Shown piece by piece: positions 1-52,500 of a DNA stretch of 64,000 bases (position 1 is its first letter; every line of letters begins with the position of its first letter). The position numbers were made by a program, and so were the translations under genes. The DNA comes from Antedon mediterranea (taxonomy: Eukaryota > Animalia > Echinodermata): contig NC_092678.1 of the NCBI RefSeq assembly GCF_964355755.1, positions 12,708,352 through 12,772,351 on the forward strand. The letters are read 5' to 3'. The notes beneath the pieces are model-generated. The model was not told the DNA's origin. It was given only the letters and a program-made list of their open reading frames with translations, and ran no database searches.

Positions 1-3000
1 CTTCCAACCTAATAAAGGCATTCAAGCGTAAGAAGAATCTTCTTAATATAATAATAATGTTCAATTTATATAGAGCAAAATACAGGGCGCCTCTAATTGC
101 TGAAAAATCAACAGAAAATGTTATAAAAGAGCAAAGGCTTAATAATGAAAAGGCAAAATATAACGGTGAAATTTGAGGAGTTGTTTAAATGTGGCGAGCG
201 GCTGTCCTGATTCAGTTTGAGAAGAACAACAGCTGAACAGGAACAGGTGCGTTGTCGATAATATTTTGTTGAAGGCTGTGTAGGTATAGGCCTGAGTAAA
301 ACCTCTGATGATGACCTCAGTGTCCGTTTTGGCTTGTATGAAGAAATTGGAAGTAAAATCAATTGACTCCTTCACAATTAAAGCACCATATTCCAAGTAA
401 TGATATTGTTTAAAATGCTTATTATTGCAGAGGTGGTCAAACCATCAGAGTGACCGGAACAAATTTCCAATATGTACAGAAAGCAATGATGTTGTTAAAT
501 AGCAAATCAGCTGAAAATGTAAGCTTTAGATACAGGATTTACATTTCTAATTTAATAAATTTCAACAGAAAGAGAGGTTTTCATTCAATGTCAACAATGT
601 TTACATCCATATCATTCATCCATATGAATATATCTATAATCCATATCCATCTCAACTCAAGGATGTAGATCCAACGCAAGCGAGTTGACCAATGAAAAGT
701 AACAGTTGGAATAATTAATTGCTTCTGATTGGTCAAATCACTTATGTTACATGCGTCCCTGTGCATCTCTAGTAGGAACCAAGCATAGTCCCTTCTCTGA
801 TGTAAATGTACTCAATACTCAGTACATTAAATCATCTGCAAAAGCATCTGATTATCAAGTATAGTTAGATGTCAAGTAGATAATTTTAAGATCGCTGATT
901 TTCTCTTTTCTACACAAAATAGACCTATTGTGTATTTATTTTGGTTATAATTGTTACTAAACAAAGTAGATTTTTTTTTCAGATTTAAGCAAAGCATATG
1001 ACTTTAAGAACATTAATTATTTATTTTTAAAATTCCTTGTAAATTGTTCTTTAATGTACATACTAAATAAAGAAATTGTGTGGTGTTTTTTCAGAACTGT
1101 ATAACTCTGTCAAATGAGGAGATGGATTGTGAAAGTCCACCAGCAGATCTCTCCACATCAGGTCATCGTAGCAGACGACAGGCAGACCAGACAGTTTTAC
1201 CTTTGACCTTTTCATTTGATGGTTTCATTCCTGCATTGAGGGGTGATTTTGGATTCTCAGTTTACCCTAGTCCAATATATTATCCCTTTGATAATATGTC
1301 TTTTTATGGAGAGACTGTAGTAGATGGAATATACAGATTTGACAAACATATTGATGAATTTATGAAGTTGATGGTAAATATCTAGTTTTATTTCTTCAGC
1401 AGTGTATTGCGTAAAAGCATTGAATCAACTCGACTTAACACAATAGAAGGATGTAATTGAAACGCAAGTCATTTGACTATTATAATGCATCAGTCGTCTA
1501 ATGAATAGTCAAGTTACTTGTGTTGTGCTTACATCATGCGATGCGTGCTAGGGGCAACCAAGTTACGTGTGTTGTGCTTACATCATGCGATGCGTGCTAG
1601 TGGCAACCAAGTTACTTGTGTTGTGCTTACATTATGCGATGCGTGCTAGTGGAAACCAAGTTACTTGTGTTGTGCTTACATCATGCAATGCGTGCTAGTG
1701 GAAACCAATTAGTTACTTGTGTTGTGCTTACATCATGCAATGCGTGCTAGTTGCAACCAAGTTACTTGTGTTGTGCTTACATCATGCGATGCGTGCTAGT
1801 GGCAACCAAGTTACTTGTGTTGTGCTTACATCATGCGATGCGTGCTAGTGGCAACCTAACTATAGTTTCTACTGCTGCACAAAATATTTACACAAATCTC
1901 AGAATTGTTATAATTGAATTTAGTTCTATTATAGTTGGTTTTTGTAAAGTGTATTATTGAGCTACATTTATTTTGTTATAAAAGAACTTTTCAAATCCTT
2001 ATTGAATCAGTAATTTACTGATTGTGATTAGTTATTATTAATTTAACAAATGCTTTTGTACATTAGGGTTCTGACATCAACCTTGCTAGTGATGTTGAGG
2101 ATGTTGAAGTCTTCATAGGAAGTGTTAAATGCACTGTAAATTCAATAACACGTACAGTAGTTCTTGTTGAGATACCAGACAAGGAACCTAATCCAGTAGA
2201 TGGTGAAGATCATCCTATTGTTATGGTAGGTCGTGAGCTCACTAGATAATACTTTTAATATTATATATAATATTTTTATCATTTTCAATAGTCTGTAACC
2301 AATAATGTCAAAATCACAAATTTTTTGTAAACGAACTCAGCAATATTGTAATATTAATTAATTTATTTTATTTTTAAGATGGACTACGTTATTTATGTTG
2401 TTCTGTTTTAATTGCTGTTTAGACTTAGGCTGAACAAGTAAAACAACGTGTAGAACTTAGAGACAAAAAGTGTTTGTCAAGATCCTAATTTTACAAAATT
2501 CTACTTAAACATTTTTGAATATATTCATTCTAACATTATTACTACTAGATTGTTTTTAACAAAAAAATGTACTACAGAATGTAACCAATGTTAGTGTTTT
2601 AATATTGATTGTCTCCAAATAACTTTAGATCCGTCATGGAAATCTAAAGTTCACTTTCGGTGCAATAAGATATGTAGGCATTGGATTGTCTACCACCGTC
2701 ATAATTATTATAATTACGGTTGTTGTGATTGTGGTTATCACCATTACAATCATACCTGTCTACTGGCGTAGATCAAGAATACTCGACAGACAATTGGAAG
2801 AAACAACAGTGAGATTTTTTACAAAAAGTAAGCTAAAAGGCATTATAGATAAACTCAAACTATTGATATCATAAGGGGCTTGAAAAGTAAAAGCTAAATT
2901 TGGATATATGAGTGATGTAAAATATAACTGATTATTTCTACAAAAATGTCCCATAAACTAAGAGTAGTGATTTACTTTTTGAAATTAGACGCATTTTGAA

Positions 3001-6000
3001 TTACTATCGCAAGTCTTCTAGAAACGAGTTTTAACAAGTTTTTGTAATAAAACAAGATAATTAGAGTGCCTATAGGAATACGCTACTGGAAAACTAATAT
3101 GCACAATTAATCCAAATGTTTTGCAATTTGTAGCGCCGAGTTTAGGGTTTATGTACTGTATATAGATGATGAGGATAGCATACCGGCATTATAATGAAAC
3201 AATCGATTACACATAAAGCTACATTCAGTATATACGAAAGTCAATAACTACAATCTAAGTAATTGTTAATAAATTAATTCATATTTAGAAGAAGAAAAAG
3301 AAAAGGAGTTTCTAGGAATAGATGACGATGATTCAGAAGTAAGGTATATGGGCATAGTACATGACAGCATAATAGCAAGGGAATTTAGTCAGAGTAAAGA
3401 GCATTATGTACAATGTATGCTGTTTCTTGGATGTGAGATGACTCCAGTAATGCAAGAAAGTGGATATGTAAGATATTGCTACTTGCTTGTGATTACACAA
3501 CGTTACAAAACATTCAATTAACGCGGGGTGTTACCTCAATGATTAATTGTATTTTGTAAGGATTTTGCAGTATTTACACCATGTCATCCGAAAGGAAGAA
3601 AGGAAGTAGGCAAATTGTTTACAATTAAAAATTCTCAACTTTACATAATCTTTTTTTAGAAAATTATAGTTTTACATTTATTTACAAATACGTAAGAGAA
3701 TACGATATAATATTATAATATTATTACTTTTCATATGTTATGTGGTATTTTTTTATTATTTTATAGACTGAACTGTTGGAAGATCATCGAGGTTTACCTG
3801 AACTGGATTTGTTTTTGGACGAGAAGTTTCTAATGAAAATAATTAACATTTTAGACAATGACTCATCGTTTACATCTGTACAAAGGTATATTAAAAAAAT
3901 TGTAATGATTTTAGATTTAGATTTAGATAATAAGTCTATGGTTATGATACAATATCGGTACAAACGGTGCAAGGAAGCTGCAATCAGTGCCACTTTTAAG
4001 TTACAATGGTTCACGTCTAACTTTGTCTATTATATGGTTCTGGTGGCAGAACACGTAAGAAAAACCGCTACAGTCTATTGGTTACTATATAATACTATAA
4101 TTACGCCTACAATTAATACAAACTTTTATCTGTTTTACTTTAGGCAAAACTTTTCCGCTTTGTTCTTAATGGCTATGGTTGGTGATGATAAAACAGAATA
4201 TCTATTTCAGTGAGTAATACTCAGTATATACCTTATTAATTTACAATTCTTGTGTATTACGTATGCAAGAATGAACGCTAGAATTGGCAGCACTGACTGA
4301 CTTAAGTGACAAGATGTAGTTGGAAAGTAAATTATCTAAGTCCACAGTAGCAATGATCGTTATACAATTTAAGTTATTATTAAGTAATTCTATGGTTACG
4401 CTTAACTCTAATATGTTGTGTGATTAAATATTTTTAGTATTATGGATATGCTTCTAAGCAAACATATTGCTAACAAAGTGAAGGCCAAAAATGTCAAGTT
4501 AGCTTTAAGCAAGTGGGTACAGTTATTTTGTGTTTTTAATAATTAATTATTAAAACCTAATTTGCAAACGTGTGTTTATCAAGTTATGACATATTACTTT
4601 AGTGACTGTGAATGTGAAATATACTTCAATATGTACTTATATACTTTTTATATACTTCATATACTTTTTATCTATTGCTATATTAATCAAATGTAATATA
4701 GCAATTACCTTCAATTACAGAAACGGCGAAACTGTTATCGAACATATGATATCTCACGTGATGGCATTATGCATGTATAAATACACAATGGTATGTAAAT
4801 TATTTTATAAATTAATAATTATATCTACATTATTCTACTAAATATTAGTAAGTAATACGATGTGATTTGGTTTACGTAATGTAAAATTAGCTTTGTTTAT
4901 GTTAGTTTAATAATAAAAGATTTTCTTTCTAAACAATAGAAGTCTCTTTTTTATTTGTAACAAATTTGACTCTTGTATAAGTTACCTTGATTAGTTAGGA
5001 ATATCAAATAAAGTCCATCAATCATCAATTAATCAATCAATCAAATAAGATCAGATCTAAAATAACGTACTGTATATAAATATATTATGTGTGTTGTATA
5101 CTACTTTCACTTCAATTTTGCAGAAGTATGTATCAGGGCCTCTTTTGCAACTTGTAGATGCTATAACTACGAGAATAGATAGTGGTGCGGTAGACGCTGT
5201 TCATCATCATTGTCAATATTCTTTAGACGAGAACTGCCTTCTGCCAATTGATGTCACTGGAGAGAATATAGTAAGATATCTGTATATGTTTTGGAAACAT
5301 TTGAGTATATAACATATAACACTGAAGCATAATACTACTTGCAAACAATTATTTTAATACATTTTTAGAGCCCATGACAAGTAAATGTGTTTATAATAAA
5401 AATGTTTAAGAAGGTCAGATAATCCCGCAAATATTTAATTATTAGCCAATCCGATAAATACTGAATTTCCACACAAATTCAATGGCATTTTTTTTTTAAT
5501 TTAGAATTTGAGTTTGGTAGTTGATGAGGAAAAACAAGAGATTGTGAAAGTAAACAGTTGTGATACGCTATTTCAAGTAAAACAAAAACTGTTAAATGTT
5601 ATGTTTAAGGAACAACCTTTTTCAAAAAGACCCAACGTTTCACACGTTCAGTTAGGTGAGTACACCAACAAACAGGCAATTTAATTGTATCTTGCTCCTT
5701 TATTCTGTAGATTTCAATTAAATACATAATATTTTTTTAAAATCTAGAATGGAGAGTGAATGTAGATCAACGACTTATTTTACAAGATACCGATTTGCAG
5801 ACAGAAAGAAAACTAAAAACAATTGCAGATTTTGGAGTAATATTACTGTAGTATTTTTTGTTTTGTAATATAAATTAACTGTTAGAAAAATGTATTAAAC
5901 CTATAATAGGCTTACTAGACATAGGCTGTGTACAGGCCGGACGTCAGTGTACACAAGCTGAACATGACGCATGTACCTTAATTGATTAAAAAAAATACTT

Positions 6001-9000
6001 TTCTACACCAACACGTTAGCAAACAAATAAATCAATCACTACTCGGATCGTAAATTTGAAGAATTATTTTTTTTCAGATTCAAAATAAAGCAGTGGTAGC
6101 GTTTGTAGACGTTTGGAAGGAAGATATCAACGCGTCAGACCATTATGATACAATTAAGCAACCAATAGTTGCTAGACATGGTAATAATAATAATATGTAT
6201 TGGTATACATACTACATTCCAACCTTACCAGTATCTAAAGTCACGGCCATTTATACTAAATATTTCTTATTGGTATTATGTTATATTTCGGCACACATTA
6301 ACAAACAACATCAAACAGCTTTATTGCGACAATGAGTGGCAGAATAGACCAAGTTATTTGTTGTTGTTGTTTGTGCTATTGTTATTATTGTCTATGATCT
6401 AACTTTACTTTTTAAGAAACTAACATCTACCAAACATCAATCAATGCAGATGGCACTTTCCACATTGTGAGTGTTTTTAGTTCAAATATTTTTACAGTCA
6501 TTTGATATCAACAAATCTTATTGCTTATTGGACATCTAATAATTAACTGTGAACTAAATATGCAGGAAAGTAGCTTTACGATAGTTGATAATCTGGCGTT
6601 ACACCAGTTACTGTTGGTCGTTTAGACGTTCTAGTTTAAAAAATATTTTGGCATACATTGCTTGTCATAACTAAACCAAAATCACCGCTCGTGGCGATAC
6701 GTAAAAAGAAACAATAACTAGAGACTTGACAAGTGTAGTCGGTCAGTTTTGATTTTGAAATGTAATTTGTTTGAATGTTTAGTTGGAAGGAAATGTGTAC
6801 ACGGGTGCGTATGATGCAATGGACGGCGAGAAGCCAGATATTGATGAATCCATCTTTGAAAGGTTAACTGAAACTAAGGTAGGAATAAATAAAAACAACA
6901 TTTTTTATTTTAACTATTTTTAAACAGTTGGGTTTTAATAGGAGGCAACTTGACATGCATATGAGACGAATCACCCTAAATGTATCTTGTTATTGGTCAA
7001 ACTTGTGTTGACCGTCTGGATACTGGGAACTTGTTTCACTCACTTTTATTGTTGTTCTGCATATATCGAACATCATTGGTTTGGTTTGATGAATCATGTT
7101 TTTCCTTAATATTTTACAGTAATAAGTATATTAATATCTCACATGTCCACAGCAAATGTACCAGCAGCATGTTGACTCCATAATGAATAATGTGTTTAGC
7201 TCATCATCGAACATCCACCTACCATTATTTGTTAAATATCTTTTTGAATTTCTGGATAACATGGCGACTAAGTATGGTGTTAGTATCAATGAATTGAAGA
7301 TATGGAAGAACAACAGGTATGGAAATTGCAAAAGAATTGTTAGATAATGAGGTTTTACTTAAAGCTCACGACGGTGTATCTACGATTTACATCGAAGAAT
7401 TAGCTCCCAATTATTTAATTATTTAATATTAAGAGAAACAAGGTAAAGAAATTTAAATTATAATTATTTAAAATTCAAATTAAAAATGTAATCATTTATT
7501 TTTATATAGGCCTATGAGCGTTTATTTCTTCATTTATAATGAGCATTTTTTTTAATGATTTTTCCTTACAATTTCCATATCATCTTGTATTTCTTCCATT
7601 GTCCATACAATATAATCAAAATAGCAAGAGAAACCAGAAATGGACTAGATCCATAATCATATTTGTATCCTTTTTTAGTTTAGCTGAGATGTTTTGGTTA
7701 AGAATTCTGAGAAACCCTGCTTATGTCTGTGACATTCACCAAACGCCCCCTATTGATATCACTCTCGGTGTCATCTCTACTGTTTTTCGAGAATCTTGGT
7801 CAATTGAGCTGTTTGGTTTTAAAAAGGTAAGCAAAAACAATGCATTTATTTATTTATTTATCGTATGTCCGGCTAATTTAATGTGTTATTTCCTGTCATC
7901 GACAACATCTGACCGTACCCTACTTCTAAACGTTACCGGTAATGAATCAGTCTTACTACTTTTGTTTATGTTGAGAATCATTTGTTCATATTATTCTTTT
8001 AGTTATATATTTGCACGATTTTGTTGAAATTAAGAACTAAACCTAATATACCGTAAACGAACAGTTTGTCTAAATCTGGCATAATTTTTATCGCGAATAA
8101 ACTTTGTTTTGATTATTTATATTCCAAACCGTCATCTGCAAATCGCTTCACAGCTCATCAATGTAGATCACCCTACGGTTTTAATATTATGATTAATATT
8201 TATATCTTTATACATATTGAATGATGCAAGCATTCACAAGCTACTTATGTTTTAATAGCTACATGACTATTTTGTAATATTTCATCAGTCATTTAATATG
8301 AAACGCCTATTTTTGGTTAAAGTCAGGTCAAAATGTGTTCTTTAGTGCTTGTCTAACTTTCAATTTTTTATTTCAAAGAATTCGCCAAGTCATCGACAGA
8401 TGTATGTAAAAGAGATTCCAAGATACCGCCAACTTGTTACTAAGTTCTATAGTGACGTCAAGCATACTCCATCTTGTGATCGCATGAACGTTATTGATGA
8501 AGTAAATTCTCTTATACAGGTATGTACAAAGACTATCAATATTGCTATTTCTCAAAGAAACTAATAGGCATAGGTCAAGGCATAGGCATATGTCAACAAA
8601 TACAAACATAGACAGAAATACGGTAACATGATATACTAATACTAATGTTTTTTATTCTCAGCCATTTAGCACATTGTTTAAGAAGTCGAGTGTGTTAGTG
8701 AATCTTCATTCATTTACGGACAAATATTTAAGAGAGGTAAATATAAATAATTATATACAGATATTTTGATAGTGTACCAGCAGAAAGAGATTTACTGATC
8801 TATACACGTCGGCTTTACTATACTGTACTAATTAGTTGAACTAGTAGTGAACTAGACAACTAGAGTACTAAACTCAAAACTCTTTCATATATTAAAATAA
8901 AAAAAGTCTTTCCACTTTAGTATCCGATTTACATACCAAATAAAAATACATAATTATTACATGTATCTTAGTAAAACAATGTGCATTTCAACATCATTGT

Positions 9001-9267
9001 GTGTCTAACATAATGTCATTTGAGTAAACGGTGTTAATATTTTAATATTTTATTAAATATCAGGTTAAAGACGCATTCCTGAAGGGTCCAAATAGAAATG
9101 AAACTAGTGTTGAAATTTTTACAACACAAGTAAGTAAGCCTTCGTCGTCGAAGGAACAAGTAGCGTATGTCAACTCAGAAATCCAGCAAAGTCGTCGACA
9201 CAATCAGAAAAGAAGAGAGGACACAGGTGTGATCATACTTTCTGATGACACAAACGCTGGCTGCTAA
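1..9267 (+). CDS. Plexin-like receptor, copy A (3' part: IPT/TIG domains, TM, split RasGAP-like domain with RBD); 5' end lies upstream of the window
   Basis: GT-AG exons with consistent phases: <1-27, 431-518, 1095-1373, 2067-2225, 2629-2827 (TM), 3289-3467, 3767-3885, 4144-4209, 4438-4512, 4721-4790, 5124-5270, 5505-5655, 5748-5836, 6078-6180, 6417-6466, 6783-6878, 7153-7316, 7679-7826, 8379-8519, 8662-8736, 9064-9267 (TAA 9265-9267). Plexin-like motifs: [12 protein letters not shown] (IPT), RIDSGAVDAV, VKVNSCDTLFQVKQK (RBD), VKYLFEFLD, WKNNS..FW..ILRNP, SPSHRQMYVKEIPRY. Confidence 0.88.
660..786. mobile_element. Degenerate MITE-like interspersed repeat
   Basis: Inverted core TGACCAAT...ATTGGTCA and terminus CTAGTAGGAACCAAGC. 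Related copies at ~30052-30170 (AAAGCTTGGTTTCCTCTAGAGACGCAA) and ~50305-50430. Confidence 0.4.
1510..1856. repeat. 49-bp minisatellite, ~7 copies (intron of plexin A)
   Basis: Unit CAAGTTACTTGTGTTGTGCTTACATCATGCGATGCGTGCTAGTGGCAAC. The same repeat occurs inverted at 49026-49561. Confidence 0.95.
2629..2827 (+). CDS. Transmembrane exon of plexin copy A
   Basis: Encodes ...LSTTVIIIIITVVVIVVITITIIPVYWRRSR...: hydrophobic span followed by basic stop-transfer residues. Donor A|GTAAGC at 2827/2828 gives phase 1, matching exon 3289. Confidence 0.8.
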
Positions 9268-10336
9268 TGGGAGGAAATAAGCTTTTGGTTATATTTGCAA
9301 ATACGTACGTTTGTCTGATTAACTATTGTAACTATAATTTAGTTCACTAAAGATTTATAGCTACTTAAATAGGCCTATTATAAGTACCAGTAGGCCTAGA
9401 GATAAAAACGTTCACTGACCATATAAGAAAATGTGTATAATAAGCTTTTGACCAATACTAATTAACATTAAAATACATTTCTTAAAAACTATAGTAAATA
9501 TAAATGGTATTGTATAAATAAATATATATTAGAATACGCAGAAATCCAGTTTCAATATGCATAATGTAATGTAATAAATTTATTTCTCTTAAATATTACC
9601 ATATATTAATAATAATTATATAAGTGCTTCTAATGTTTATAAAATGAAAGTTAGTGTATGTGTGTCATCCACACCTATGCGCAATTCAACTTAGTTAGGC
9701 TGCAAGACACATGTTATTCTCTCGCATTTACATTTACCGATGCACAAAATATTAGTTATCTCTGTAAATATTCTAACAATAAGTATTTTAAATTTGAGTA
9801 ATATTGATATTTTTTTGCGTGGCTATAAACATACTAGCATACTATTATTCATTTAATCACGTGACAACACATACATTGGATAATATAAGTAAAGATAATG
9901 ATCTAAAATTCTTTTGATGTTGAATATGCCATTTTCATGTTACATAATAGGTAGCCTATTCACTTTGACTAAAATTTGGATAAAAACTTATTACCTGAAA
10001 AAAAAAATTGTAGGCCTAATTTAAAGCAAAAAAAAATATCAAATTGGCTGCCAGCCAGGGGGTTTCGGTTAAATTTAACCGTTTAATTCGTCTCTTTATA
10101 AGTAGAATAATTTTGTTTGTTCGTAAGTGAATAACTTTATTAAAACTTTAAAATGGCCTATTCAAAGTCTGATTCCATGTTTTATGGAGTTAGGGTTAAT
10201 AAACAAGTTTTATTATCAATTTTCGAATCATAATATATTATAACCAAATATAAAATGAATGAAATGAATCAAAATATTACTGAAAAATACCTGCTACATA
10301 TCACAAATAGAAAGTGAAAAATATATTAATAATAGT

Positions 10337-10759
10337 TATCTCCATTGAGATCCAGCCACTGATACCCACAGCATTGTCATTTTTTTGAGTAATTTGCCTT
10401 TGGATTTATATATATTTTTTACTGTTTGTATCAATTTTGATCTGATTTTGCTGTAATTATGGAGGGTAATTTGAATAACTTTACCAAATTACGTCGCCTG
10501 TCCGAGAAACGTGTCAGATATTTCTTTTATTCCTGTCCACCCAGGCAGCACTTCCCAGCTTTATACTATGACGTTATCCACATTCCTTCACTTGCACTGA
10601 TGAAGGGCTAGTGTTGACCGAAAGCTCTGCTAACTTTTCTGGCTGTTTACTTTATCGTTTTGATTTAGCTTTTCGCTTTTTATTTTTGTATCTCCATTGA
10701 GATCCAGCCACTGATACCCACAGCATTGTCAATTTTTTTCAGTAATTTGCCTTTGGATT
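10337..10759 (+). mobile_element. Small non-autonomous retrozyme/Penelope-like element with terminal direct repeat
   Basis: ~70-bp direct repeat (TATCTCCATTGAGATCCAGCCACTGATACCCACAGCATTGTCA...AGTAATTTGCCTTTGGATT) at ~10337-10406 and ~10689-10759, giving a ~352-bp unit. Flanking duplication ATTAATAATAGTTAT at 10325-10339 and 10757-10771. Internal hammerhead motif. Confidence 0.75.
10592..10633 (+). ncRNA. Minimal type I hammerhead ribozyme (Penelope/retrozyme type)
   Basis: TTGCA-CTGATGA-A-GG(GCTAGTGTTGA)CC-GAAAGCTC-TGC(T)AA. Contains core CUGAUGA and GAAA, a short stem II, palindromic AGCT stem III, a UC cleavage site, and stem I GCA/TGC. Confidence 0.72.
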
Positions 10760-10964
10760 AATAATAGTTATTAGTAATAAATTATATTTTTGCGTATAAC
10801 AAGGTGATGCATTTCCAAAAATATGTTTTAGTGCTCAAAATGCAAATATTACTAAAAATACAGTAATAAAATTGTAAATATTGTTATATTTTAAAATACA
10901 ATAGGACAAATTCTTGTTTGCGTAATAATTTTGAAAGCTGAATAGAACTTCGAGTTGCTAGGTT

Positions 10965-13900
10965 TTAGCAGCAGTCTTTTTTCATTTTCAAAACGTTGTT
11001 ATACTTTAGGCCACTATCATCATCTGTTAAGGAGATAGACATTACAATTATTATTATTACATAATACCATAACTTATTATATTATATGGAATTATAATTA
11101 TATTATTATGTTTATGAAAATAAAAGAGACATTTTAATTAGTATTTTTATATATTTTCTTATCATCCTAAGGATGAACATATTGCACACAACATCTCACA
11201 CTGTACGAATCATTACAACTCGAACATATTGCACACAACATCTCACACTGTACGAATCATTACAACTCGAACATATTTCACACAACATCTCACACTGTAC
11301 GAATCATTACAACTCGAACATATTGCACACAACGTCTCACACTGTACGAATCATTACAACTCGAACATATTGCACACAACGTCTCACACTGTACGAATCA
11401 TTACAACTCGAACATATTGCACACAACATCTCACACTGTACGAATCATTACAACTCGAACATATTGCACACAACATCTCACACTGTACGAATCATTACAA
11501 CTCAAACATATTGCACACAACATCTCACACTGTACGAATCATTACAACTCGAACATATTGCACACAACATCTCACACTGTACGAATCATTACAACTCGAA
11601 CATATTGCACACAACATCTCACACTGTACGAATCATTACAACTCGAGATGCTTTGACCAAAATTAAATATTACGCAGTACTTAAAATAATATAGTATTTT
11701 TAGTGTATTTCCACATGGATATACTGGCAACGCATTCACAAGCATTTAAAATGAGCTAGCACTTTTGATTTGTCAAATTACTTGCGTTGTGCGTAAGTCT
11801 TTGCATTGCGCACCAACCATAATAGCATTCTTAACCTGTCGTAAGCTTCATACACACTTGAACGGAACGAAGGTCTGCGTCGTTTGATTGAATAATGGAA
11901 ACATTAAACAAAGAATTGACAGGACTTTGTCCGTAAAAATAAACAAAATGTAGCTGTATACGGGAACTATGATTTTATTGATAATTAAGGTAATAATAAC
12001 AACTCACATAGCCAGTTCCCCTCATTAGATCCTGCGGTCTTGAAGTCTGGCAACGTTTTTGATGAGTCCCACTTGTCCTTACTGACAAACTGCCAAGTTA
12101 CTCCATTATCTTTACTGCGCATGTAACTGCGCATATCCTTGTGAATTCCATAGATAAGCCCTTTGGATTGGTCCGAACCAATAACGTTGTGGAGGTACAT
12201 TGGCAGTGCTATTGACGAACAATGTAAATTATGTGTATTTAGGTTCAAAGAGAATGATTTAAACGCAATTTATCAAATTAATTTTACTGAACTAAGGTGA
12301 AGGCGAACCTACTTTGGATTTTCGCCGATTAAAAAAAATGGATATGGTTTGAGGCGCTTCTGCTCTTGATTCGATATAGGATAGTGGTTTTTGGCAGCTG
12401 AAAGTTTTTAAGTGTGTGGAGGTCCATGGTTCAGTGCTACCATTGGGGTTAAAAAATATTAAATCATTAAACTCACCTTTCCATCTCCCGTTTGGTGGAT
12501 CATCTTGTACATAACAGGACGGAACAAACTTCTGGGATAGACGTCCATATGAAGGATTACAAGCAAAAATGATGTAATTAGCTGGATCGTTCAATTTCTT
12601 AGTTATTACAAAACCCCGATCATAATAATCTGTCAACATAAAAATGCAATGTGGGCAATGTATGAGTTATTCGTTGGTTCTTGAAACTAATTTAAATAAT
12701 GATACACGTGCTATACATTGCAGTAATAACTGATTTGCATGGTATTTAAAAAAATCATGTGGAATATAAAGTTACTACACAAAGACAAGTTCACACATCA
12801 CTGCATAAAACAAATGTATGGCATTGTATATTAAAGCTCTTTCTATTAGTGGTAAGTGAGTGTGGCATTGCTAATAATTGCACGTGCAGTCGTCAACACT
12901 AAATACCCAGACTTGGAACGTAGTGTTTTGGATGTTATCAATTATGGCCCCCGTAAAAAAAAAGTTTTTTTTCTTCAAAATATTAACTGATTTGTTTATT
13001 AAAGAAAGTACCTGAAACTGGACAGTTACTAGAATCTCTGACACACACAGTGTGCTTTCCGTCTTCACATTTATGGGCACCAGCTACACAACAATCACAC
13101 TGGTTAGATCCCAAGTCGTAATGGCAGACACATGTCTGAGTATTAGCCCACTTGCTGTATCTCATCACAGTTTCTTTAGCATAGTTTGGTACACGTATCT
13201 CTGACGAATAATTATGTACTCTCTTTTATTTTGTGGTTAGAGTTCAATTTTGTTCCATTTTATTCGACTACACTATTAAGAACGTGGTGCTGGTTTGTAG
13301 GCTTAAAAACTGTTTTACTAAACATTGAATTGATTAAACTAAGAATACTCAAATAAATCAATGGATCAATTTTGTTTATATAAAATCTTGATTTACTTTG
13401 AAACAACCAAATTTGGCGCTTTTCAAATTCGTTCAAATACAGTAGCTATGTATTCTTTATACTACCTTGAGGCATAGAATATTCACAAATGGCTGGTAAG
13501 ATAGCGGTACACTCCATAATGTCCCAGTCTCCAAGATCAGTACTGACGTCGTCTCTTGCGTCATAGATCTCTATATAAGCCGCAGTTCCACAGTCTTTAT
13601 TCGAGCTTGTCCCGGGTCTGTTAGGTAGCCATTTTGTATATGACGCCGATGAACCGTCTGTCCACTTGAACTCATCACCCTGTGTGAAAGTTCATGGTAT
13701 ACACTAAAATTGTTTTTTAAATTGTTAAAATAATTGTTGAATAAACCCACCGATAATAATGAGAAATTTCAGAACACCGTTAACGTAGTAAATGACGAAA
13801 ATAATGTTTAATTTGTCGACGAACATGATAGGACACTAGCCCAATTGCAATCAGATACATTTACACATCCAACTAAAGTAGAACCCCTTAACTTGCAACC

Positions 13901-33230: not shown

Positions 33231-33592
33231 TGATCTAGTTATTATATATGTGACAAAATATCAACAATCTAGTTACGATTTGCGATTGAATATAAATGAC
33301 CTAGTCATCATATGAAACCAATTACCAACAATCTAAACCAAGTACAGCCTACAACTGCTGTGATTTTCGGCCAACATTTTCTGTTCCACTTTTTGGTTGT
33401 GATCTAGTTTTTGACAGAAAGCAACATAATAACAATTAGGAAAGTGGGTTAAAAAAAAGGAATGTTGCTGTATTCTTTTTTAATGTGATTGATTGACTTG
33501 AACATTTGTTATTTGTTGTACTTTACAATGGTCATGCGTTAGTGCAGTATCTTAATGAAGTATTTGGCCAATAAACATCTTTTTTAATATTT

Positions 33593-34047
33593 TTATTCTA
33601 GTTTCATGTCTTCAACCTTGGCAGAGAGATCTTCTGTTTTTAGTTTTTTCTTTCCTCCTTCTTTTTGTTTCTTCTGTTTCTTTCCTTGTTGTTCTTCAAT
33701 TGGTGCTGGTTTAGTGAATTTAATTAATTCTTTCAAGCCTGCAATGAACACAACATCATATACATGAGCTACATATACAGTATTTATATACAAAAAAACA
33801 AATTATCTTAGTTTCAACTCCTGAAGAATAACAATTGGTACACTCTACAAAGTGCTGAAATCAAACTATAATGAAACCAGACTTGGCTACAACGACTCAA
33901 CGTATGCAAACAAAATGTCTTTAGAGGGTTTGTTTTTCTTTTACTTAAACAAAATTAATTTTTACCTCAGGCATAAATGGTCGTAGAATTTCAGGAACAA
34001 CAATGCCCTCTTCAGTTTGATTATTTTCTAGTATACAGCAGATGATT
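33593..34047 (-). pseudogene. SARS1: 3' fragment (last two exons) of cytoplasmic seryl-tRNA synthetase
   Basis: 33966-34047 encodes IICCILENNQTEEGIVVPEILRPFMPE and 33593-33738 encodes GLKELIKFTKPAPIEEQQGKKQKKQKEGGKKK...*, matching the animal cytosolic SerRS C-terminus (ICAILEN.QTE.GI.VPE.L..FMP.GL.ELI.F.KPAPIE..KKQKKQ). Upstream motif-3 sequence is absent and the splice phases mismatch. Confidence 0.85.
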
Positions 34048-34519
34048 TTGTAAAATATGAATAATATTAAAATACCTAAGTGCATACAATATTTAATGAT
34101 ATTTTAATATTATTATATGTTATATGTTTTAATATTAATATATGTTATATGTTTTAATATTAATATATGTTATATATTTTAATATTAATATATGTTTAAC
34201 TGCACTGCACTTCTCACCCGATATTATAACAATTTCATCAGATCTTTAAGTGTTTTATTTAACTGGGTTTGTCAATTTGGGAAACTAAACTGATTTTATG
34301 CAACTTTACTACAATTTAATAATTTAGTTGCTTGTATTGTATAGAATTTATGATTATGAAATGTCTAAGAAATGCACATACAGAATAGTACATAAATGTG
34401 AAGTTTACTGTTTATATTTGACTACAATGTTCCACAAATTATGAGCATTGAGCATGGCACAAAGTAAGGACATAAAACATTGAGTACAGTGATAAAGTGA
34501 CTTGCAACATAATTACTGT

Positions 34520-40500: not shown

Positions 40501-43500
40501 GTTAGTATAGTATCTTGGTGTGTAGAAGTTTATAAATAATTGTCATTGTTACATGTTTAGAAGAGAATTTATATCAGATCGTAGTTGTACTACACTGTTT
40601 TGTTATTCAAATGAGTTTTTGTTTTGTTAATTTTTTGTTAATTTTGTATATTAGAAGTTGCCTAGTATTGTATTAACTTTTTCCTGCCATACAACTTTAT
40701 GCTGTATTGTTGCTTACACCGGTAGGGAGATATCTGGTTCATGCCAGATATTTTATTGTAATATGTTATGCATTAATATTAATCGCTCTTGACCTTGGAA
40801 CTTTAAATTTTGTGTGGTCGCCACTGGAGGCTGGATGGAAATTTTTTAGAGATTTTCCCCCGATTCGGTTATCAGGGGTTTTATTCTTTGCCTATCGCAA
40901 GGTTAAGAGTGTTTTAGTAGAACATTACAGGTTAGCATCTGTTTGCCTTCAGTTCATTTAATTGAAAACAGAACAGAAAAGTAAAAAACACACGACTATT
41001 TAATTTTCGTCATTTTATCTAGAAACGAATATTGCATTTATTTTGTTTGTTATTTATACGGGGTTATGGAAGTTGGCGTGTGTGACCGCACTATCCTAGA
41101 ATAAACATGTTTTAAACAGATATTTTGTCCCCATTGGTTCATGTATGGGGTTAACAGGAGCTGAGATGAGATCCAAATTTAACTGTGCTGTATTAGGGCA
41201 TTAGGTTAGATCAATCACACTCCCACACCTCAAAAGACAAGGCCTGCTATTGGTTAATAAAGGACTTAAAGCAACTTACTGAGATCTAAATGTTGAACTT
41301 TTGGGCGATCTGTGTATGGATCATTTTTGTACAATGTATCCAGTATCTTCTCCTTTACTTGACTGATGGTGTCACAGCTAAGAACTTTCACTTTTTGAAA
41401 TTCACCACTGTCAGAATTTTGTATTGCATTCAGTGTCTGTAAAATAAAAAAAAAATATATTTTTAGAATATTAAGTTGTAATTAAAGTAATTACTATAGT
41501 ACACACACAAGAGAAAGTAAATACAGAGATTAACTCTGACTGTTTACTGTTGTTTTAATAGAAATCCATTGTGGCCATGAAATTTCATCTAATAATGAAA
41601 ATGGAATGCATGTATACAGGGAAATAGTTTATAGAATACATACAATGACTTGAGGACGTTCATCTGACTGAAGGCAATCATCAAGGTTCAATGAGTATGT
41701 AGCATGTCCAGTAATGGCATCTACTGGACCCATCTCAATCCTTAACTTCAGTGCATGGTACAGAACATACAGTGGATGCCCGGCATAGTCCTGCAAAACA
41801 CATGAATGTTTAAATGAGCAAATGGCCAAAAAGTTAAGACATTGGAACTGTAATCCATAGCCTTATGCCAAGGGTTTGAGGCTCACTTGCTCCATGGTTC
41901 TGGTGGTAGAACGAGTCTTCTTGGATAGTTAATTGTTTTTAACTGTGTGCTAGTTTATTTTGTATTCTTTTATTTTATTTCATACACATCCAACAGCGAG
42001 TACAAACTCGCCAATTACAGGATGGATGAACTATTTTATCGTGATTATAAACTAAGTCTCATTTGAGGGTTAGAGAGTGGAGTTAAAAGAGTCTTGAGTT
42101 ACAACCCTGCCATGGGGTCAGGATTGAACCCTGGACCTTGGGATTGGAAGGCAAGCATGTTGTAACCACCAAGCTACAGCTCCACTACAATGCGATAAGC
42201 TATGCTTTTCTGTTCAATGTGCAGTATGAAGACATACTACACTCAGGGAGTGGAAAGAAAAAATAAAAATATAATAATTTTCTCGATAGAACGACACTTC
42301 CTACACACAGACTAAGAATTGCACTTACTGGCATATAATTGCATCACAACGCATACGCATTAATAGATGAAAGTCGAACCAATAAATATGATAAAAATGT
42401 GCAATATTTCTGGGTTAATTTCAATGTTTAGTTAATATAAAACTAATAAACATTATAAGTAAATCTTCCAAATGATTATTTTTATTATATGAATGTGATT
42501 GTGAGAAAAGCAATATAAACATACCTTAAGGTAATTGTACATTGATAAAGCTATCCAATTGGACAATAGCTTTGCAGTCACAGAGTCTGTTCTATAAATG
42601 TTAAACAATAATTCAGTTTGAATATGTTGAACATATTTTCACATTTACTGTAACTAACAATAAATACATTGACTTTCATTGCTCCAACAATAACAATGTA
42701 CAGTAACATGGTAGTAAACATATTTTCTTTTTGGTAGAAAGAATGTGCCCTCTAATTTGCATAGCACACAAGATAATATACACCAGATGACCTGAAGTAG
42801 TTATGACTGTGAACAACTTTAACAATTTGGTTTGATACTCAATGCAGAAACTAATGCCATGTCTGATCACCTCAGCAACTCCATTTTGCAAAGACAATGA
42901 TTTTAACATAGAATACATGTGACTCAAAATAATGAGACAGAAGCTATGATTGAGCCACCGTTTTGATCTTCATTGGATCAATAAAGATTGAAACGTTGAA
43001 AACTGACTTCCCTCTCATTATTATATTTGGATTTAGTTTATTTCATGCTATCTAATATTGGATTAGGTTTGTAGATCATCTTGTGTTTTTGTTGTCTTGC
43101 TTTAGTATAATATCGGACATTATTATACGCTGTTGACAAAGAATAAATAAAAACAAACTGACCTGGCTAGGACCTGCTTGGCTTTATGCGATGACACACA
43201 ATAATCAATGTTGTCTATTAACAACTCCTCAAGTACCCTATAACACAACACAAATTATTGTCAGTTTCATTTATTTACACAATTAATTGTAACCAATAAA
43301 TGTCTATATTTGCTGGATTGTTGTGGTGAAACAAGACTTAAAGACACTTAAGGTTGGCTTTCTTCCAGCCTATGTATTTTATTGTTTTACTGATAATCTG
43401 TATTAATGTTTGATGAAGTGTGAAATAAAAACGAAAAAAAAAAACAAAAAAAAACACGGTTTGAACATCAAAATTGTTCAATTTGATTAAGACAAAATGG

Positions 43501-46500
43501 AAGTGAAATTATTTCCATCAAATGTATTATAATATAAAAAAAAAAGTAATTTACTCAGTAAAATAATCCATTTTATCTTCGATGAGAAATTCCACCACAA
43601 GTAACGATGCGATGTTACACCTAAAACATGACAAAATAATACACTTTAAATCATTGTTGAAATGAAAGTATAAACATTAGCATTATCATATCTTGCAATC
43701 AATTTGGACTACAAGTAGATCACAACTTTATAAGTAAAAAAATGGTTTTTAGAGGAGTTAACATGCAAATATTTAATCCAACAGAAACATGCTATGTTAT
43801 AGAATGTAAGGCTTCATACAATCAAATAGGTTAAGGAGCGGGTGTCTAGCAATAAATAGTGTGTTATTCACCCTATCCTGTATTGTAATAATTATGGGTC
43901 AAAAAACAACACATCTTACACATTTTAAATTGCTTTCATTTTGCTTAGTCAGTAAAAATAAGTTTGATGTCAGATGTCAAAATAAAATGCAAACGTTGTA
44001 ACTATCATCATTAGGCTTAAAACAACAATGTCATAATTAATATGTGATTGTGATTTTTAAAAATTCCATTAAATGGCCTTATTATTAAAATTTAATAAAT
44101 GTTTTTAAATAAACAAACAAATTTATGTGAACATCACTAAATTGTTGTTATATGTTATGTACTGTATATTGTTTGAAATTAAAGTTTATTGTAAATTGTT
44201 ATGTTGTATCTTAAAATAAAAGAATGTTCAACATATGACATTGGTCAACAAGAAAAAAAATATGTTGCCTAACAATGCATTAAATTTAATTAAATGAATT
44301 TGAGCTAATTTTGCAATTTAAATTTGGTTAAAAAACTGTAGACTGTAAATTGTAGACCTGAACTCACACGCTTTTTCATCATTTTGTGTCAATGATAACA
44401 GGTTTTGAATTCATAAAGCACAAATAACAAAAAAAATCTTTAAGCGCTGTGAACAACATTCAAGTGAAAGTTAATCAAGAAAAAGGCTGAAAGCGGAATT
44501 CCATGAAAACATGTTACCTAATTATTATGCACTAAAATGTGTCCCTTCACTATAGAGTACAGTACTTATTAACAAGGCCAACAGCCATTAAGTCGCGTGC
44601 TACAATGCATAGTGATACCGACAGACAGACAGACCGACAGACAGACGGACCGACCGACATAGTGAACTATACTGACCGAAATTACTGAACATGTTTAAAA
44701 ATGTTGAAATGTTTAAAAACATTTATATTTTTTTAATTTACACGTGCGTAGCCTGTCACTTTTGACGTGCTCGTATAACGTAATTTCGAGTTGAAAAGTA
44801 AGTCAAGAAAACAGAAATCGGGCAAAATGAGTGCGTAATAACATTTAACGCGCAGTGCGCGCGCAAAAATCTGCGCACTCATGGCAATTTTGTAAACGCT
44901 TAAAATTGCCTGAAACGTACTCTTATTTCATCAAAAATAAATTTTGAAAATTTTAAGCGCGCGTACGCATGCGTTACATGCGCTACGCACGTAATTGTAT
45001 TGCCATATGATGATTTATGCCCTGAAATTTATGAGTACCAAATTTTATTTAATTGTGATTCATGGTTGTTAAGATATGATTACAAACGTGATTTCGTTAA
45101 ATCGTGCGTAGACCGCGTAATTTTTTATTGCGCACCGTGAAAACATAACCACATCGATTCCTGGCAATAAGGAATATTCTGTGAAAAATTGACTTAGCTA
45201 GATTAAACTGATATCAAGATAAGGTCATAAAGCGATAAAACGCATAGTGATACCGGACCGACAGATAGACAGACAGACCGACAGACAGACAGACCGACCG
45301 ACCGACATAGTGAACTATAGAGTCGCTTCCACGCGACTAAAAACTAAAAAAGTTAACACAACTTGGTTAAACTGTAAAGGTTATCTTTAAAGTTGGTTTA
45401 AAAAAACAAATCATATTCAGTTTAAATGAAAAACAAAAACCACAATATTAAAGTAAAAATAATTTGATTTAAAATGTTACACCACAAATATTTTCCCCAT
45501 TTGTTATTCAAACATGCAGCAAGTTTTCAATAAAATGGAATGAACAACAATATGTAAGGGAGGTAAACATAAAATGTGGTACAAACAATGTAACCATATC
45601 AACAACAAAAAGAATAAAACAATTTGAATGCAAACAAATTAACTGAAATTAAAAAAAAATGTTGAGTGCAAAAGGTAAAAAACCCCAAACTTTACCACAA
45701 TGAACAGAAAACTGTAAAAGCTGTGGAGTGAATGGTATGATATTAACTTGAGGCAAATTAAAAAAAAACATGTTGTGATACACACTACAGTGAAACACCT
45801 TCTTTGAGACCTCACTATTAAGGGAATACACACCTCTATTAAAACACTACTGTCATTTGAAATGAACAAGGGCAATATTGTTTCAACATTATGGCCAATT
45901 ACCTTGTTTAGTGGACACTTTCTTGTGAAACAGACAAAGGGTAATGTGTTTTAACACTACGCTAACCACTATTCAGGAGACATCTTAATTAAGGCAAAGT
46001 TTTTTTTTGAGTTGATGTATACTTTAAAATGCCAAAAAATTATACAAGTCTTATAATTTCGGTTTGTAAATTTAATTTGAGACAATATTTTCTAGTACAG
46101 GCTAGATTGTGTGGAATTTGAAACAGTACAGTATATAAAACATACGTAAAGATGGCTCACTAATAATTGAAATGTGCAGTATTAACGGTAAAAAACTTAC
46201 TTCTCTTTAACAGTAACTTTTGAATTGCTGTCCAACATTTTGATGAAAGTTAACAAGAAACTCTTGTTAAGAAGAAGCTCTGAAAGTTGTTGTAAACGTT
46301 TTGTAATGTTTTCACTATCCTAAGTAAAGTAAATTATTAGAAAAGAAATAATTACTATACAAATATTTATTTCATATTATTAATTTTATTGATCAGAGTG
46401 TTTAAACGCAAGAAATTGGAATGTTGATCGTTGTCTAAGAACACCGGGACTTTTAAGGCCAAAGATTACCATACGTCTTACGTTAGATAACTAACCTAAC

Positions 46501-49500
46501 GCTGTGAGTCTGAACACACCCTTAGATTCTAAGACAACAAACAGAAATGTTTGCTGCTTAACTGTTACTTTGACCACTTTCACTCATCCATATTTATAGC
46601 ATATGACCATGGAGTACAACTCGGGTTGTAATACAACTGAATAGGGAATAGTTGAATGTTAAGTTTTTTTGTTCATAGTTGTTTTAACTCTTTCTAATTA
46701 TCACTTCATATTATCAGGCGTGGGAGTGCCTCCCCAATACACTCCAAAAAATGACCTGAAGTCGTGCCGTTTACCGCACGTTTGGTAAACTTTTACACAT
46801 GAAAAACAGCAAACCTAGATCACACTATGTGCTGAGGAGTACAATATGTAGCATACTAGCAATTTGAAAGACACAAAGCCTGTGATATGATATAATATGA
46901 GTGGAGAAAATAAACAAACTTACTTTGTTTTGTGAATCTGGAATATGTTCAAAGCCATTGAACATCATGTTACAGACATATTGTTTATGAGTAACAAAAG
47001 GCATTACAATCCCTTGAAAATCATCTGCCGTCAAATCAGTCAAGTAAACAGTTAAATCAGCGAATGCTATTACAAAAATAAATAAAAATGATAAGTTTGT
47101 GTTTACTAAGTATTTAACCAAATATTCTTTACAAAATATTCACATTTCTATACTTCATTCAATATTATTGTGTTTGTATTTTCTCTATGATTTTTAATTA
47201 ATATGTGAAGGGAAATTTATTAATATCAACAAGGTAAGTACAACATTTTAAGTATACATAAAATAGTGAGATTAATAATGTATGAACAGTTGAATGATAC
47301 TAATTACAATCCTTTATCCAAATTAAAATAGAAAAAAAACATTGAAAACAAATGTTATTTTTATAATTATACAAAATTTGAGAAAAATACTTTTTTTTAT
47401 TGAGGTTGTATGACAAATCTATACTGGAAGTCATTATTGCCTACAATCTGCAACTGTTGGTTGGTCAGGGTTGGGTTTGGGGGTAGTATCATGGCACAAA
47501 TGGAATTGTTCACCTAAGGAATGTACAGTACAGCCAGGCATACGTATTAAGAGGCAGTTGTAAAGATATTCTGGCCATTTGCATCTACTAAAGACACACA
47601 ACAGAATGCTGAGTACTTTGGCAATAAAACAAAGATGGGAATTCTGTGTACATAATTGAAAAATATTGGGACATACTTGAGAATGAATGACATTTTACCA
47701 GTTTAAAAGTACAAATTTATTGTAAATGGTTATCCTGCAATTTGGTCAGTGTTATGCCCAAATAAGGTCATGTTATGCCCAAATAAGGTCATGTTATGCC
47801 TAAATAAGGTCATGTTATGCTTGATTTTAATGATTCACCTGATTGAGCTTCTTCCTGTACTTCTTCTTGAATTCTTTCCATTTCAACATAAACTTTTTTG
47901 GTTTCTTTGTCATATTGTTTAATCCTTCTTCTATGGATCAGAAGAATGATAAAGAAGAGAAGTATTGTAACACCTATTACTGAACAAACTACAATTATTT
48001 CTACTTGAATGTTGGAAGAATATTCGATGGGTCCAAATGTCACATTAATGTTACCATGTTGAATCTGAAATGAAAACAATTCAATTATACTACTATACGC
48101 TATTATTTTGTTTTCTGTACAATAATATCTTGAACTTTGATATTTAGCAGTAGTTTAAAAAAAAGATTTAAAAAAATTAAAAAAAGAATTTAAAAACATA
48201 AATTCCCGCTTATTGAAGAATAGCATTTAAAAAAAAACAATCATTAATTAGAAATTAGACAGATAATGAATGTTTACGAGTTGAATGGTGAGAATATTTA
48301 ATAAGTTGAAAGATTGACTGCTCCCATTTAACGGGTAGCAAGATTACAATCATAGGTGTTATAAAATTCATTATTTTGTGATAAAAGATAATGTTCTATC
48401 AATTGCAGAACATTTGGCAAAATCAGGAGCAGAGTATTTTACTTTAAATGAGAGGGAGGTTACCTTTGGCTTTTAATTGAACTTCACTATCAATTCTATA
48501 TAATAATATTATAAAGTATTACTGCATCAGTACTTCAATTAATTTGAGAAAAATGTCCTTTTCTGTACCATGCTGTCTAAGAGGTTACTTTTAAAATGAG
48601 TAATAATTAGATTATGATTATTGTGATCTGGTGACCACAAACATTTGCTTACCTTAACAATAGGATGATCTTCACCATCTACTGGATTAGGTTCCTTGTC
48701 TGGTACTTCAACAAGAACTACTGTACGTGTTATTGAATTTACAGTGCATTTAACACTTCCAATGAACACTTCAACATTCTCAACATCACTTGCAAGGTTG
48801 ATGTCAGAACCCTAATGTACAAAAGCATTTGTTAAATTAATAATAAATAATCACAATCAGTAAATTACTGATTCAATAAGGATTTGAAAAGTTCTTTTTT
48901 AAATTTAAAAATAAATGTAGCTCAACAATACACTTTACAAAAACCAACTATAATAGAACTAAATTCAATAATTACAAAAATTCTGAGATTTGTGTAAATA
49001 TTTTGTGCAGTAGTGGAAACTAAGTTTGGTTGCTCCTAGCACGCATTGCATGATGTAAGCACAACACAAGTAACTTGGTTGCAACTAACACGCATTGCAT
49101 GATGTAAGTACAACACAAGTAACTTGGTTTCCACTAGCACGCATCGCATGATGTAAGCACAACACAAGTAACTTGGTTGCCACTAGCACGCATTGCATGA
49201 TGTAAGTACAACACAAGTATGGTTGCCACTAGCACGCATCGCATGATGTAAGCACAACACAAGTAACTTGGTTGCCACTAGCATGCATTGCATGATGTAA
49301 GTACAACACAAGTAACTTGGTTGCCACTAGCACGCATCGCACGATGTAAGCACAACACAAGTATGGTTGCCACTAGCACGCATTGCATGATGTAAGCACA
49401 ACACAAGTAACTTGGTTGCAACTAGCACGCATCGCATGATGTAAGTACAACACAAGTAACTTGGTTTCCACTAGCACGCATCGCATGATGTAAGCACAAC

Positions 49501-52500
49501 ACAAGTAACTTGGTTGCAACTAGCACGCATTGCATGATGTAAGCACAACACAAGTAACTTGACTATTCATGAAACGATTCATGGATCGTCCATTGCATCA
49601 TGATAGTCAAATGACTTGCGTTGTCAATTACATTCTTCCATTGTTCCAAAGTAGAGTTGATTCAATCCTTTTACGCAATATACTGCTGAAGAAATAAAAC
49701 TAGATATTTACCATCAACTTCATAAATTCATCAATATGTTTGTCATATCTGTATATTCCATCTACTACAGTCTCTCCATAAAAAGACATATTATCAAAGG
49801 GATAATATATTGGATTAGGGTAAACTGAAAATCCAAAATCACCACTCAATGCAGGAACGAAACCATCAAATGAAAAGGTCAAAGGTAAAACTTCTTGGTC
49901 TGCCTGTCGTCTGCTACGATGACCTGATGTGGAGAGATCAGCTGGTGGACTTTCACAATCCATATCCTCATTTGACAGAATTATACAGTTCTGAAAAAAC
50001 AACACATCATTTCTTTATTTATTATGTACATTAAAGAACAATTTACAAAGAATTTTAAAAATAAATAATTAATGTTCATAAAGTCATATACTTGCTTAAA
50101 TCTGACAAAACAATTCTACTTAGTAAACATTATAATCAAAATAAATACACAAATAAATTGTGTAAATAAGACAGAAGAGAAATCAGAGTGTTAATGTTGG
50201 AAAACAAAAACATGATCTTAAAATTATCTTTACTTGATAATCAGATGCTTTTGGAGATGATTTAATGTACTGAGCATTGAGTACAATTACATCAGAGAAG
50301 GGCCTATGCTTGGTTACTACTAGAGATGCACAAGGACGCATGTAACATAAGTGATTTGACAAATCACAAGCAATTGATTATTCCAACTGTTAATTTTCAT
50401 TGGTCAACTCGCTTGCGTTGGGTCTACTTCCTTGAGTTGAGATGGATATGGATTATAGATATATTCATATGGATGAATGATATGGATGTAAACATTGTTA
50501 ACATTGAATGAAAACCTCTCTTTCTGTTGAAATTTATTATATTAGAAATGTAAATGTATCTAAAGCTTACATTTTCAGCTGATACGCTATTTTACAACAT
50601 CGTTGCTTTCTGTACATATTGGAAATTTGTTCCGGTCACTCTGATGTTTTGACCACCTCTGCAAAAATAAGCATTTTAAACATTATCATTACATGGAATA
50701 TGGTGCTTTAAGTATGAAGGAGTTTATTGATTTTACTTCCAATTCTTAAAGCCCAACATTGTCACATTGTTTTGCATAATAATTTGATACACTGAGCTTT
50801 TGTATCAAGGTCAGTACAGTTTGTATCTTACTATAGTAAACAGCTCTGTAGGTCTGAACTAGACTAATTGCCCCAACTTTATATTATTGTCTTTTATTAT
50901 TTTAGTCTACCAGTCGGTGTTTTGATTTTTGTCCTGAAAGCTCAAGCAGTGTACGTATGAAAGGCCATATGTGTCAAAATATTTTTCTTTTTACTAATAT
51001 TAAGTCAAAACTCCGTCAGGAACCCAGATTAGGTCTGAACATTCCTTAAGACTATAATTCTCAAGTATTTTTTTAGATAATAAAATGTTTCTGTCCATTT
51101 ACAAAATTAAGTATATTAATCTCTCTTCTTCGAGGGCTTGCAGCTAAGGCTATCGCTTAGGTCTAGCATTTTCAGAACATAACATAACACCAGTATTGGA
51201 ACAGCTACATTTGGTGGCCAGTTGAGAAGAGAGTAATGTACAAGATACTTCATCACATTTAAATCACTCCAAAACATGGCTCCAACATTTCTATCTAAAA
51301 CATTTTCAAGCCAAAACGGACACTGAGGTCATCACTCAGGCCTATACCTAGACTGCCTTCAAAAAAATATTATGGACAACGCGCCTGTTTCTGGTCAGCT
51401 GCTCTTTGGAACGCCCTTCCAAACTCAATCAGGAATGCCGAATCACTCGACACATTCAAACAACTTCTCAAATCTCACCTTTTTATTTTGCATTTTCATT
51501 ATTAAGCTTTTGCTCTTTTATAACATTTTCTGTTGATTGTTCAACGCTTTGAGATGCCCTGTATTTTGCGGTATATTAAATTGAACATTATTATTATATA
51601 ATTAAGAAAATTCTTCTTACGCTTGAATGCCTTTATTAGGTTGGAAGTCAGTCACTGTGGGATTTGTAGTGTAATTAAATGTAAGACCATCTCTAACAGC
51701 ATTTCCAAATGTAACTGTTACTGCAACTTCAGCTCCAGATGTTGTATAGTTTGATGTTGTACAAATCATCTGGTTTTCATTGATACTGTAAAATAAATCA
51801 ACAGTGGTTAGAATTTTGTAAAGATACATCCTTTTGAAGTACGCTCTAAAATTAGTAAAATAATGGTCCAGAATTAGGATCCTGGTGTGGATTGCTATCA
51901 AAAAGTAATAGAGTATTCCGTGACCATTACATCTATCTGTGGTTTAAAATCGGTAAAGATCTGTCTAATAAATAATGCAAAATATAACCTCCTTGGCAGT
52001 CCTAATAATCTACATGTCAATCTATATACAAATAAGATTTATTTTGTAACATAACCTGCACCTACGTTAGACTAGACGATAATGTAAAGAATGTTATTTC
52101 GTACCTTGTAACATAACATTCACTTCCATCAATAGATACCATTACATCATTCCCAGTGTTCAGATTGGATCCACTTAATCTTAGTGTAGTTCCACCAGCT
52201 TGAATGCCAAACCTTGGACTCAACTCAGATATAAGTGGATTCTAAAATGAAATAAAAAAATGTTTAATTTAATAAATATACTAATAAAACACAGGTATTA
52301 CAATCTGTATGATTAATAATTGTTTTTAATATTTAAAAAAAAACAAATGTTTTTATACAAACATAACCACAAGTTTAAAAGTTAATATATTTATAGTATA
52401 AAAATTGGTCAGCGGAAACTATTTCATAAAATTGTTAATATCCTTCTCTTTTACTAGTAGGAATGAAAGTAGAGGAGAAGAGTGAAATTGCATTAGTTTC

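Follow-up and report, generated by a model that had tools for sequence, protein, structure and literature searches.

The window analysed here, a stretch of 64,000 nucleotides from the crinoid (feather star) Antedon mediterranea (contig NC_092678.1), holds two convergently oriented plexin genes, copy A on the plus strand and copy B on the minus strand. Copy A is present as its 3' part (1..9267, +): its 21 exons remain open to a stop codon at 9265-9267, and the gene model is 100% identical to an annotated A. mediterranea protein, P0016 (XP_071961157), in which the Pfam domains PF01833, PF08337 and PF20170 are all found. Copy B extends over 34520..61288 (-), with PSI/TIG/IPT exons from about 61288, a transmembrane (TM) exon at 48064-47839, 16 cytoplasmic exons and a stop codon at 34522-34520; 21 modelled exons of B were matched to those of A.

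The shared block and its edge

Comparison of the window with itself by blastn reveals an inverted repeat: segments 1-336, 345-1856 and 1515-2228 on one strand pair with 51647-48650 on the other, with identities of 83-93%. The A side (1..2228, +) comprises exons 1-27, 431-518, 1095-1373 and 2067-2225 with their introns, and continues past the start of the window; the B side (48650..51647, -) comprises exons 51647-51621, 50658-50571, 49990-49712 and 48811-48653. A 49-bp minisatellite lies within a block intron of both copies, with 7.0 units in A (1510..1856) and 11.1 units in B (49026..49561). Leaving the minisatellite aside, the block is 93.8% identical, introns included (113 mismatches in 1,827 aligned columns), and the four common exons encode 8/8, 25/29, 86/93 and 50/53 identical amino acids. 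The three block introns are themselves 90-96% identical, a similarity beyond the reach of selection alone, which means that the two sides of the block descend from one recent ancestral sequence. A preliminary description, made by a model from the letters of this DNA, had reported the common exons, introns and minisatellite, and its count of seven differences among the 93 amino acids of the largest exon is exact. Its phrase "near-identical ectodomains" needs two qualifications: it stands for 93.8%, and what the window contains of the block is the membrane-proximal IPT stalk only, the Sema domains of A and B lying beyond the window.

Similarity between the copies ends at the donor site that follows the last IPT exon, at 2226 in A (edge 2226..2228, +) and 48652 in B. 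The edge thus coincides with the end of an exon, rather than falling within the following intron (403 bp in A, 588 bp in B), as is expected if exchange halts where old homology halts. Beyond it, identity drops to 16/65 amino acids in the TM exon and to about 30% across the tails; in the core formed by the GTPase-activating protein (GAP) domain and the Rho-binding domain (RBD) the same amino acid is found at 170 of 489 codons. All 20 introns nevertheless share their phase in A and B, and 17 exons lie downstream of the block. None of the 17 intron pairs downstream of the block clearly aligns above shuffled sequence (best score 36 against a shuffle maximum of 34, the best being an AT-rich 25-mer). 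The position of the collapse and the distant tails with conserved intron positions are as first described. Separate estimates of divergence, which the description had proposed with the remark that similar synonymous divergence (dS) in the two parts would speak against it, differ sharply: dS is 0.063 and nonsynonymous divergence (dN) 0.036 in the block exons, whereas synonymous sites in the core are saturated (proportion of differences, pS, 0.80) and dN is 0.68. These data support an old duplication that gave rise to A and B, with an ectodomain block that has been shared recently.

A cluster of copies and the history of the block

The description passed over four points that are taken up below: a larger cluster, a stop codon in B, the variability of the Sema domain and the loss of catalytic residues in A. 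A and B belong to a cluster with at least six A-type and at least five B-type tails, the members of which we read as lying on one chromosome. Among the A-type tails, six are distinct and 90.8-99.0% identical to one another over about 207 amino acids; for five B-type tails the figure is 97.3-100% over about 183. A good many of the annotated copies are fragmentary, and uncollapsed haplotypes may be among them. There are also two older paralogs, P0065 and P0066, the first of which groups with P0022 of Anneissia.

Pfam finds a Sema domain in P0001 and P0010, both paralogs from the cluster. Three copies have a near-complete Sema, and in these its first 400 residues are the most variable part (67-82% identity, with indels in loops); P0010 and P0004 have tails that are 98% identical despite their Sema variation. 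The excess of Sema divergence is significant in all three pairs (p from 1e-20 to 2e-5) and is absent in the comparison with Anneissia (p = 0.71).

Could the chimeric structure be an artefact of assembly or of haplotypes? No single contig covers the whole stretch, no DNA contig among the matches listed bridges position 2228 by at least 31 bases, and the cluster is repetitive. The block, however, is 6% diverged and carries indels; a second annotated copy, P0001, continues from the same IPT exon into an A-type intron; and both junctions occur spliced in independent samples. Two sequencing runs, X8 and X9, are treated as RNA because their contigs skip modelled introns at GT..AG, although they are not recorded as such. 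In X9, from a second organism, one contig among those matching region 1880-3900 joins 2225 to the A TM exon (2629..2827, +) with 38 letters on its short side, and another connects that IPT exon with the TM exon of B. In X8 the B junction appears in two contigs over that region and the A junction in none among the matches listed; the run does join A-tail exons at 5836-6078, 6876-7151, 7314-7677, 7822-8375 and 8516-8659 (among the best 15 of 29 joints). Both chimeric transcripts that the description called for are therefore seen, and with both stalk-tail combinations spliced in independent material an artefact is unlikely, to the point that we regard this explanation as already largely refuted. 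Base 2117 differs between the two organisms, which is compatible with species-wide spread and is not used as support.

Trees of the tail (25 selected rows) and of the stalk (22 rows) place the two parts of the gene at very different depths. The path from A to B measures 2.5-3.65 changes per column in the tail versus 0.07 in the stalk. In the tail trees a branch of 1.7-2.6 changes per column leads to A, within a crinoid clade that includes B, P0065 and P0022 (98/97 and 98/98); neither a clade of A and B (p-AU 0.43) nor one of B, C and Anneissia (0.17) is rejected there. In the stalk tree the A and B types form one clade (100/99). The orthologs P0065 and P0022, used as a control, show the opposite of A and B, being 76% identical in the tail and 48% in the stalk.

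Copies also appear mosaic at the protein level. P0013, whose final 61 amino acids are those with which A begins, agrees with the B types at 37/37 informative sites; A in turn agrees with P0001, an A type, at 14/15. The stalk of the window's copy B is 94.2% identical to A, compared with 90.5-93.4% to the other B types, with which its tail identity is 98-99%, and it shares three clustered sites out of eight with A types. We infer recombination as the cause of the shared block and, from these patterns, repeated rather than single exchange. The description had proposed an old duplication whose ectodomain was homogenised by gene conversion or by replacement: the old split and the recent block both stand, while the even divergence of the block (below) would suit a single replacement as well as repeated conversion, to which the mosaics seen at the protein level point.

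The two tails and their catalytic sites

Plexins are usually few and slow-evolving, and the GAP domain is their most conserved part. Both tails in the window retain the plexin architecture, in which an RBD is inserted into a split domain of RasGAP fold. The tail of A keeps the GAP/RBD fold (Pfam E 1.5e-71; structure model TM-score 0.86 to plexin B1), and in IPT-TM-GAP/RBD architecture and fold A and B resemble canonical plexins A, B, C and D (PMC3787391, PMC12183121). The sites singled out in PMC3787391 are Arg711 as the arginine finger, Arg1001 as a second arginine, the residues Asn1005 and Asn1009, and a helix beside the membrane that is required for dimer activation; PMC12183121 describes an arginine (RR) pair in plexin B1. 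We mapped these sites by alignment to plexin A1 and B1 chains and by spacing, and compared them with 89 other plexins that passed a coverage and score filter. The two arginines of the RR pair and the Arg1001 equivalent are kept in 86, 89 and 86 of the 89, respectively.

A-type tails have none of the three. The exons of A over the RR site (4438..4790, +) encode Ser-Lys, as in 5/5 copies, and a Met codon (7689..7691, +) stands at the position that corresponds by spacing to Arg1001 of PlexinC1, as in 6/6. The Asn1005 equivalent is also missing, and the juxtamembrane exon (3289..3467, +) has lost the canonical activation-helix motif, which is kept in B, P0065, P0066 and P0022; the segment is predicted to be disordered, with residues 400-429 at low confidence in the structure model. 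By comparison with the canonical plexins of those papers, A is thus without either arginine of the finger pair, without equivalents of the second arginine and of Asn1005, and without the juxtamembrane motif, and from its residues its tail is predicted to be GAP-dead. B keeps one of the pair: its exons over the RR site (42525..43237, -) encode Ala-Arg, and Lys (codon 36519..36521, -), Gln and His occupy the positions of Arg1001 and of the Switch II asparagines, Asn1005 and Asn1009, all of this in 5/5 B types, with the Gln and His also present in P0065. The arginine that B retains is the one invariant in 89/89, which may or may not be the finger of the pair.

P0066, which lies on the same chromosome, has Arg-Trp at the RR site, so that the otherwise invariant arginine is replaced, and it is possibly a second, independent GAP-dead plexin. 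Neither A nor B has a charged TM residue. A scan for immunoreceptor tyrosine-based inhibitory and activation motifs (ITIM, ITAM) gave two ITIM-like matches per tail, about the level of chance; those of A (P0016 residues 422-427 and 462-467, encoded by exon 3289-3467 and its junction) are exposed and lie in the remodelled juxtamembrane region.

Each copy has a further peculiarity of structure. Within an intron of A, a short alternative terminal exon (2379..2411, +) that is in frame and ends in a stop is included in the annotation of P0001, which terminates there, and is absent from P0016. It would yield a tail-less form of the ectodomain; no read support for it was seen. In B an in-frame TAA lies within the block (50592..50594, -), where A has TTA (Leu) at 495-497 and Leu is also found in four other B-type proteins. 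At this codon the public annotation divides B into P0012, with PF01833, and P0003, with PF08337 and PF20170. P0003 also omits a 66-nt exon of the GAP domain (43620-43555, -), whose splice sites look intact and which other B copies retain.

A proposed damping partner, its alternatives and the neighbouring sequence

The reading that we favor, at a probability of roughly 0.55, is that A is a GAP-dead partner that damps the Rap-GAP output of B-type plexins, with recombination keeping the stalk common to both. Homologous recombination, by gene conversion or crossover, would have overwritten the ectodomains up to the last IPT exon. Given that semaphorin induces dimer activation of plexins (PMC3787391), A could then either bind and sequester ligand or form inactive A/B dimers, and as a decoy or dominant-negative partner would lower the Rap-GAP output of the likely GAP-active B types; it might also signal through its retained Rho-binding domain. 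Such a natural pseudo-GAP plexin would allow one to ask what plexins do without Rap-GAP activity. The description had pictured receptors that could bind the same ligand and signal differently: different signalling fits the loss of catalytic residues in A, whereas a shared ligand stays conjectural, the Sema being the most divergent part among the copies.

A number of observations weigh against this reading. The in-frame stop probably means that the window's copy B is null, or else that the TAA base is an error; with B probably null, the window pair may not itself work as a pair. Activity of the B types is likely rather than established, their own GAP site being altered (Lys, Gln, His), and what the family demonstrably has in common is a stalk rather than a ligand. 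It may also be that P0013 is a locus of its own instead of the 5' part of A, and the A junction was seen in one contig, from one of the two spliced runs. With respect to repeated exchange, the B types stay together in the stalk tree (100/91), so that stalks sort by tail type, and the block is evenly diverged throughout its length (p = 0.10 for the variance among bins, p = 0.72 for the longest run); a single exchange would account for both findings just as well as a series of them.

These last two points also lend themselves to another history. A single event, about 6% divergence ago, would have given an old A plexin the ectodomain of a B type, and segmental duplication would then have produced further A-B units. 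Since the second organism has both junctions as well, the event can predate the split between the two organisms. The mosaics among copies and the A-like sites of the window's copy B would nevertheless need later exchange, and an edge placed exactly at the end of an exon favors homology-guided exchange; we hold the single graft to be a tentative alternative.

Exonic variants in the A tail bear on a different possibility. Among 21 such variants, drawn from the best 40 of 426 and the best 40 of 177 rows, 16 are nonsynonymous and five synonymous, close to the neutral expectation and a further point against a functional A; most lie near the membrane. Together with the stop codon in B, the many fragmentary annotated copies and a truncated gene remnant beside B that suggests duplication breakpoints, this ratio could indicate birth-and-death debris: decaying segmental duplicates with a drifting A tail, paired without function. 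Against this, the frame of the A tail is open over 17 exons with all splice sites kept after 1.7-2.6 changes per column, splicing of the tail is seen in two organisms, the fold has been preserved, and a dN of 0.68 with saturated dS points to long purifying selection. We consider debris unlikely.

A more ambitious version of the damping-partner reading would see here a combinatorial recognition locus of crinoids, in which diverse Sema heads on a homogenised stalk are joined by recombination, including inversion, to an active or a GAP-dead tail. Both tails lie between the inverted blocks (2229..48649, 46 kb), and by geometry alone a crossover within the blocks would flip this interval and swap the tails without loss. 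With variable ligand-binding heads, a common stalk and a second, predicted-dead tail, the cluster has the layout of immune paired receptors, of which the literature searches given below listed no example in this family or phylum; on the more ambitious reading, a paired-receptor system for self/non-self or pathogen recognition would have arisen in an invertebrate from an axon-guidance receptor. We find this doubtful, though the locus is a candidate for recognition in crinoids.

The description had likewise invoked the logic of paired immune receptors. Siglec-11/16 and Siglec-5/14 are closely linked, oppositely oriented paralogs whose ectodomain exons and introns are homogenised by gene conversion, and A and B resemble them in layout, in an edge near an exon end, in differing tails and, with this copy B probably null, in null alleles within the pair (PMC5701461, PMC13358205). 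They differ in two respects: the Siglecs convert the ligand-binding domain, whereas A and B share a stalk, as far as seen, with variable Sema heads; and the Siglec contrast is between an ITIM tail and a DAP12-binding TM, while that of A and B is between GAP folds with and without catalytic arginines and no charged TM (PMC5701461, PMC13358205). A and B share with paired receptors the linked paralogs, similar stalk and divergent tails, but they lack the opposition of ITIM to charged TM or ITAM and are accordingly not filed as paired receptors of the Siglec type. Among echinoderms, an expansion of Plexin-B (B1-B8) is known in Acanthaster, together with Met-LP, a plexin ectodomain on a kinase tail that adjoins Plexin-B and for which repeated duplication of the pair has been proposed; Met-LP gained a kinase, whereas A and B both have plexin GAP folds with matching intron phases (PMC6374515). 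The passages available of that paper report no ectodomain homogenisation, GAP-dead plexins or crinoids. Literature searches on plexins in crinoids, plexins and gene conversion, lineage-specific expansion in echinoderms, allorecognition, and invertebrate paired receptors with gene conversion (listings that cover few subscription journals) brought up no paper on this locus and none on converted plexin ectodomains.

The remaining features of the window lie around the plexins. About 470 bp after the stop codon of B, two exon-like pieces (33595-34045, -) correspond to the end of a cytoplasmic seryl-tRNA synthetase gene; the first has a PDB match (E 3e-8) and the second we take to belong to the same gene. 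As the space before them is too small for the preceding exons, this is probably a truncated remnant that marks a duplication breakpoint. Between the plexin tails, at about 12000-28700 (-), lies a multi-exon, lectin-like gene that combines exons for C-type lectin and F5/8 type C (discoidin) domains. Large, very homogeneous minisatellites with 98% matches occur at 11175-11646 (47 bp), 21946-22392 (89 bp), 38131-39364 (41 bp) and 60260-61013 (47 bp). An open frame of 129 amino acids at 63612-63998 (+), which has no Pfam match, is probably a transposon-derived fragment.

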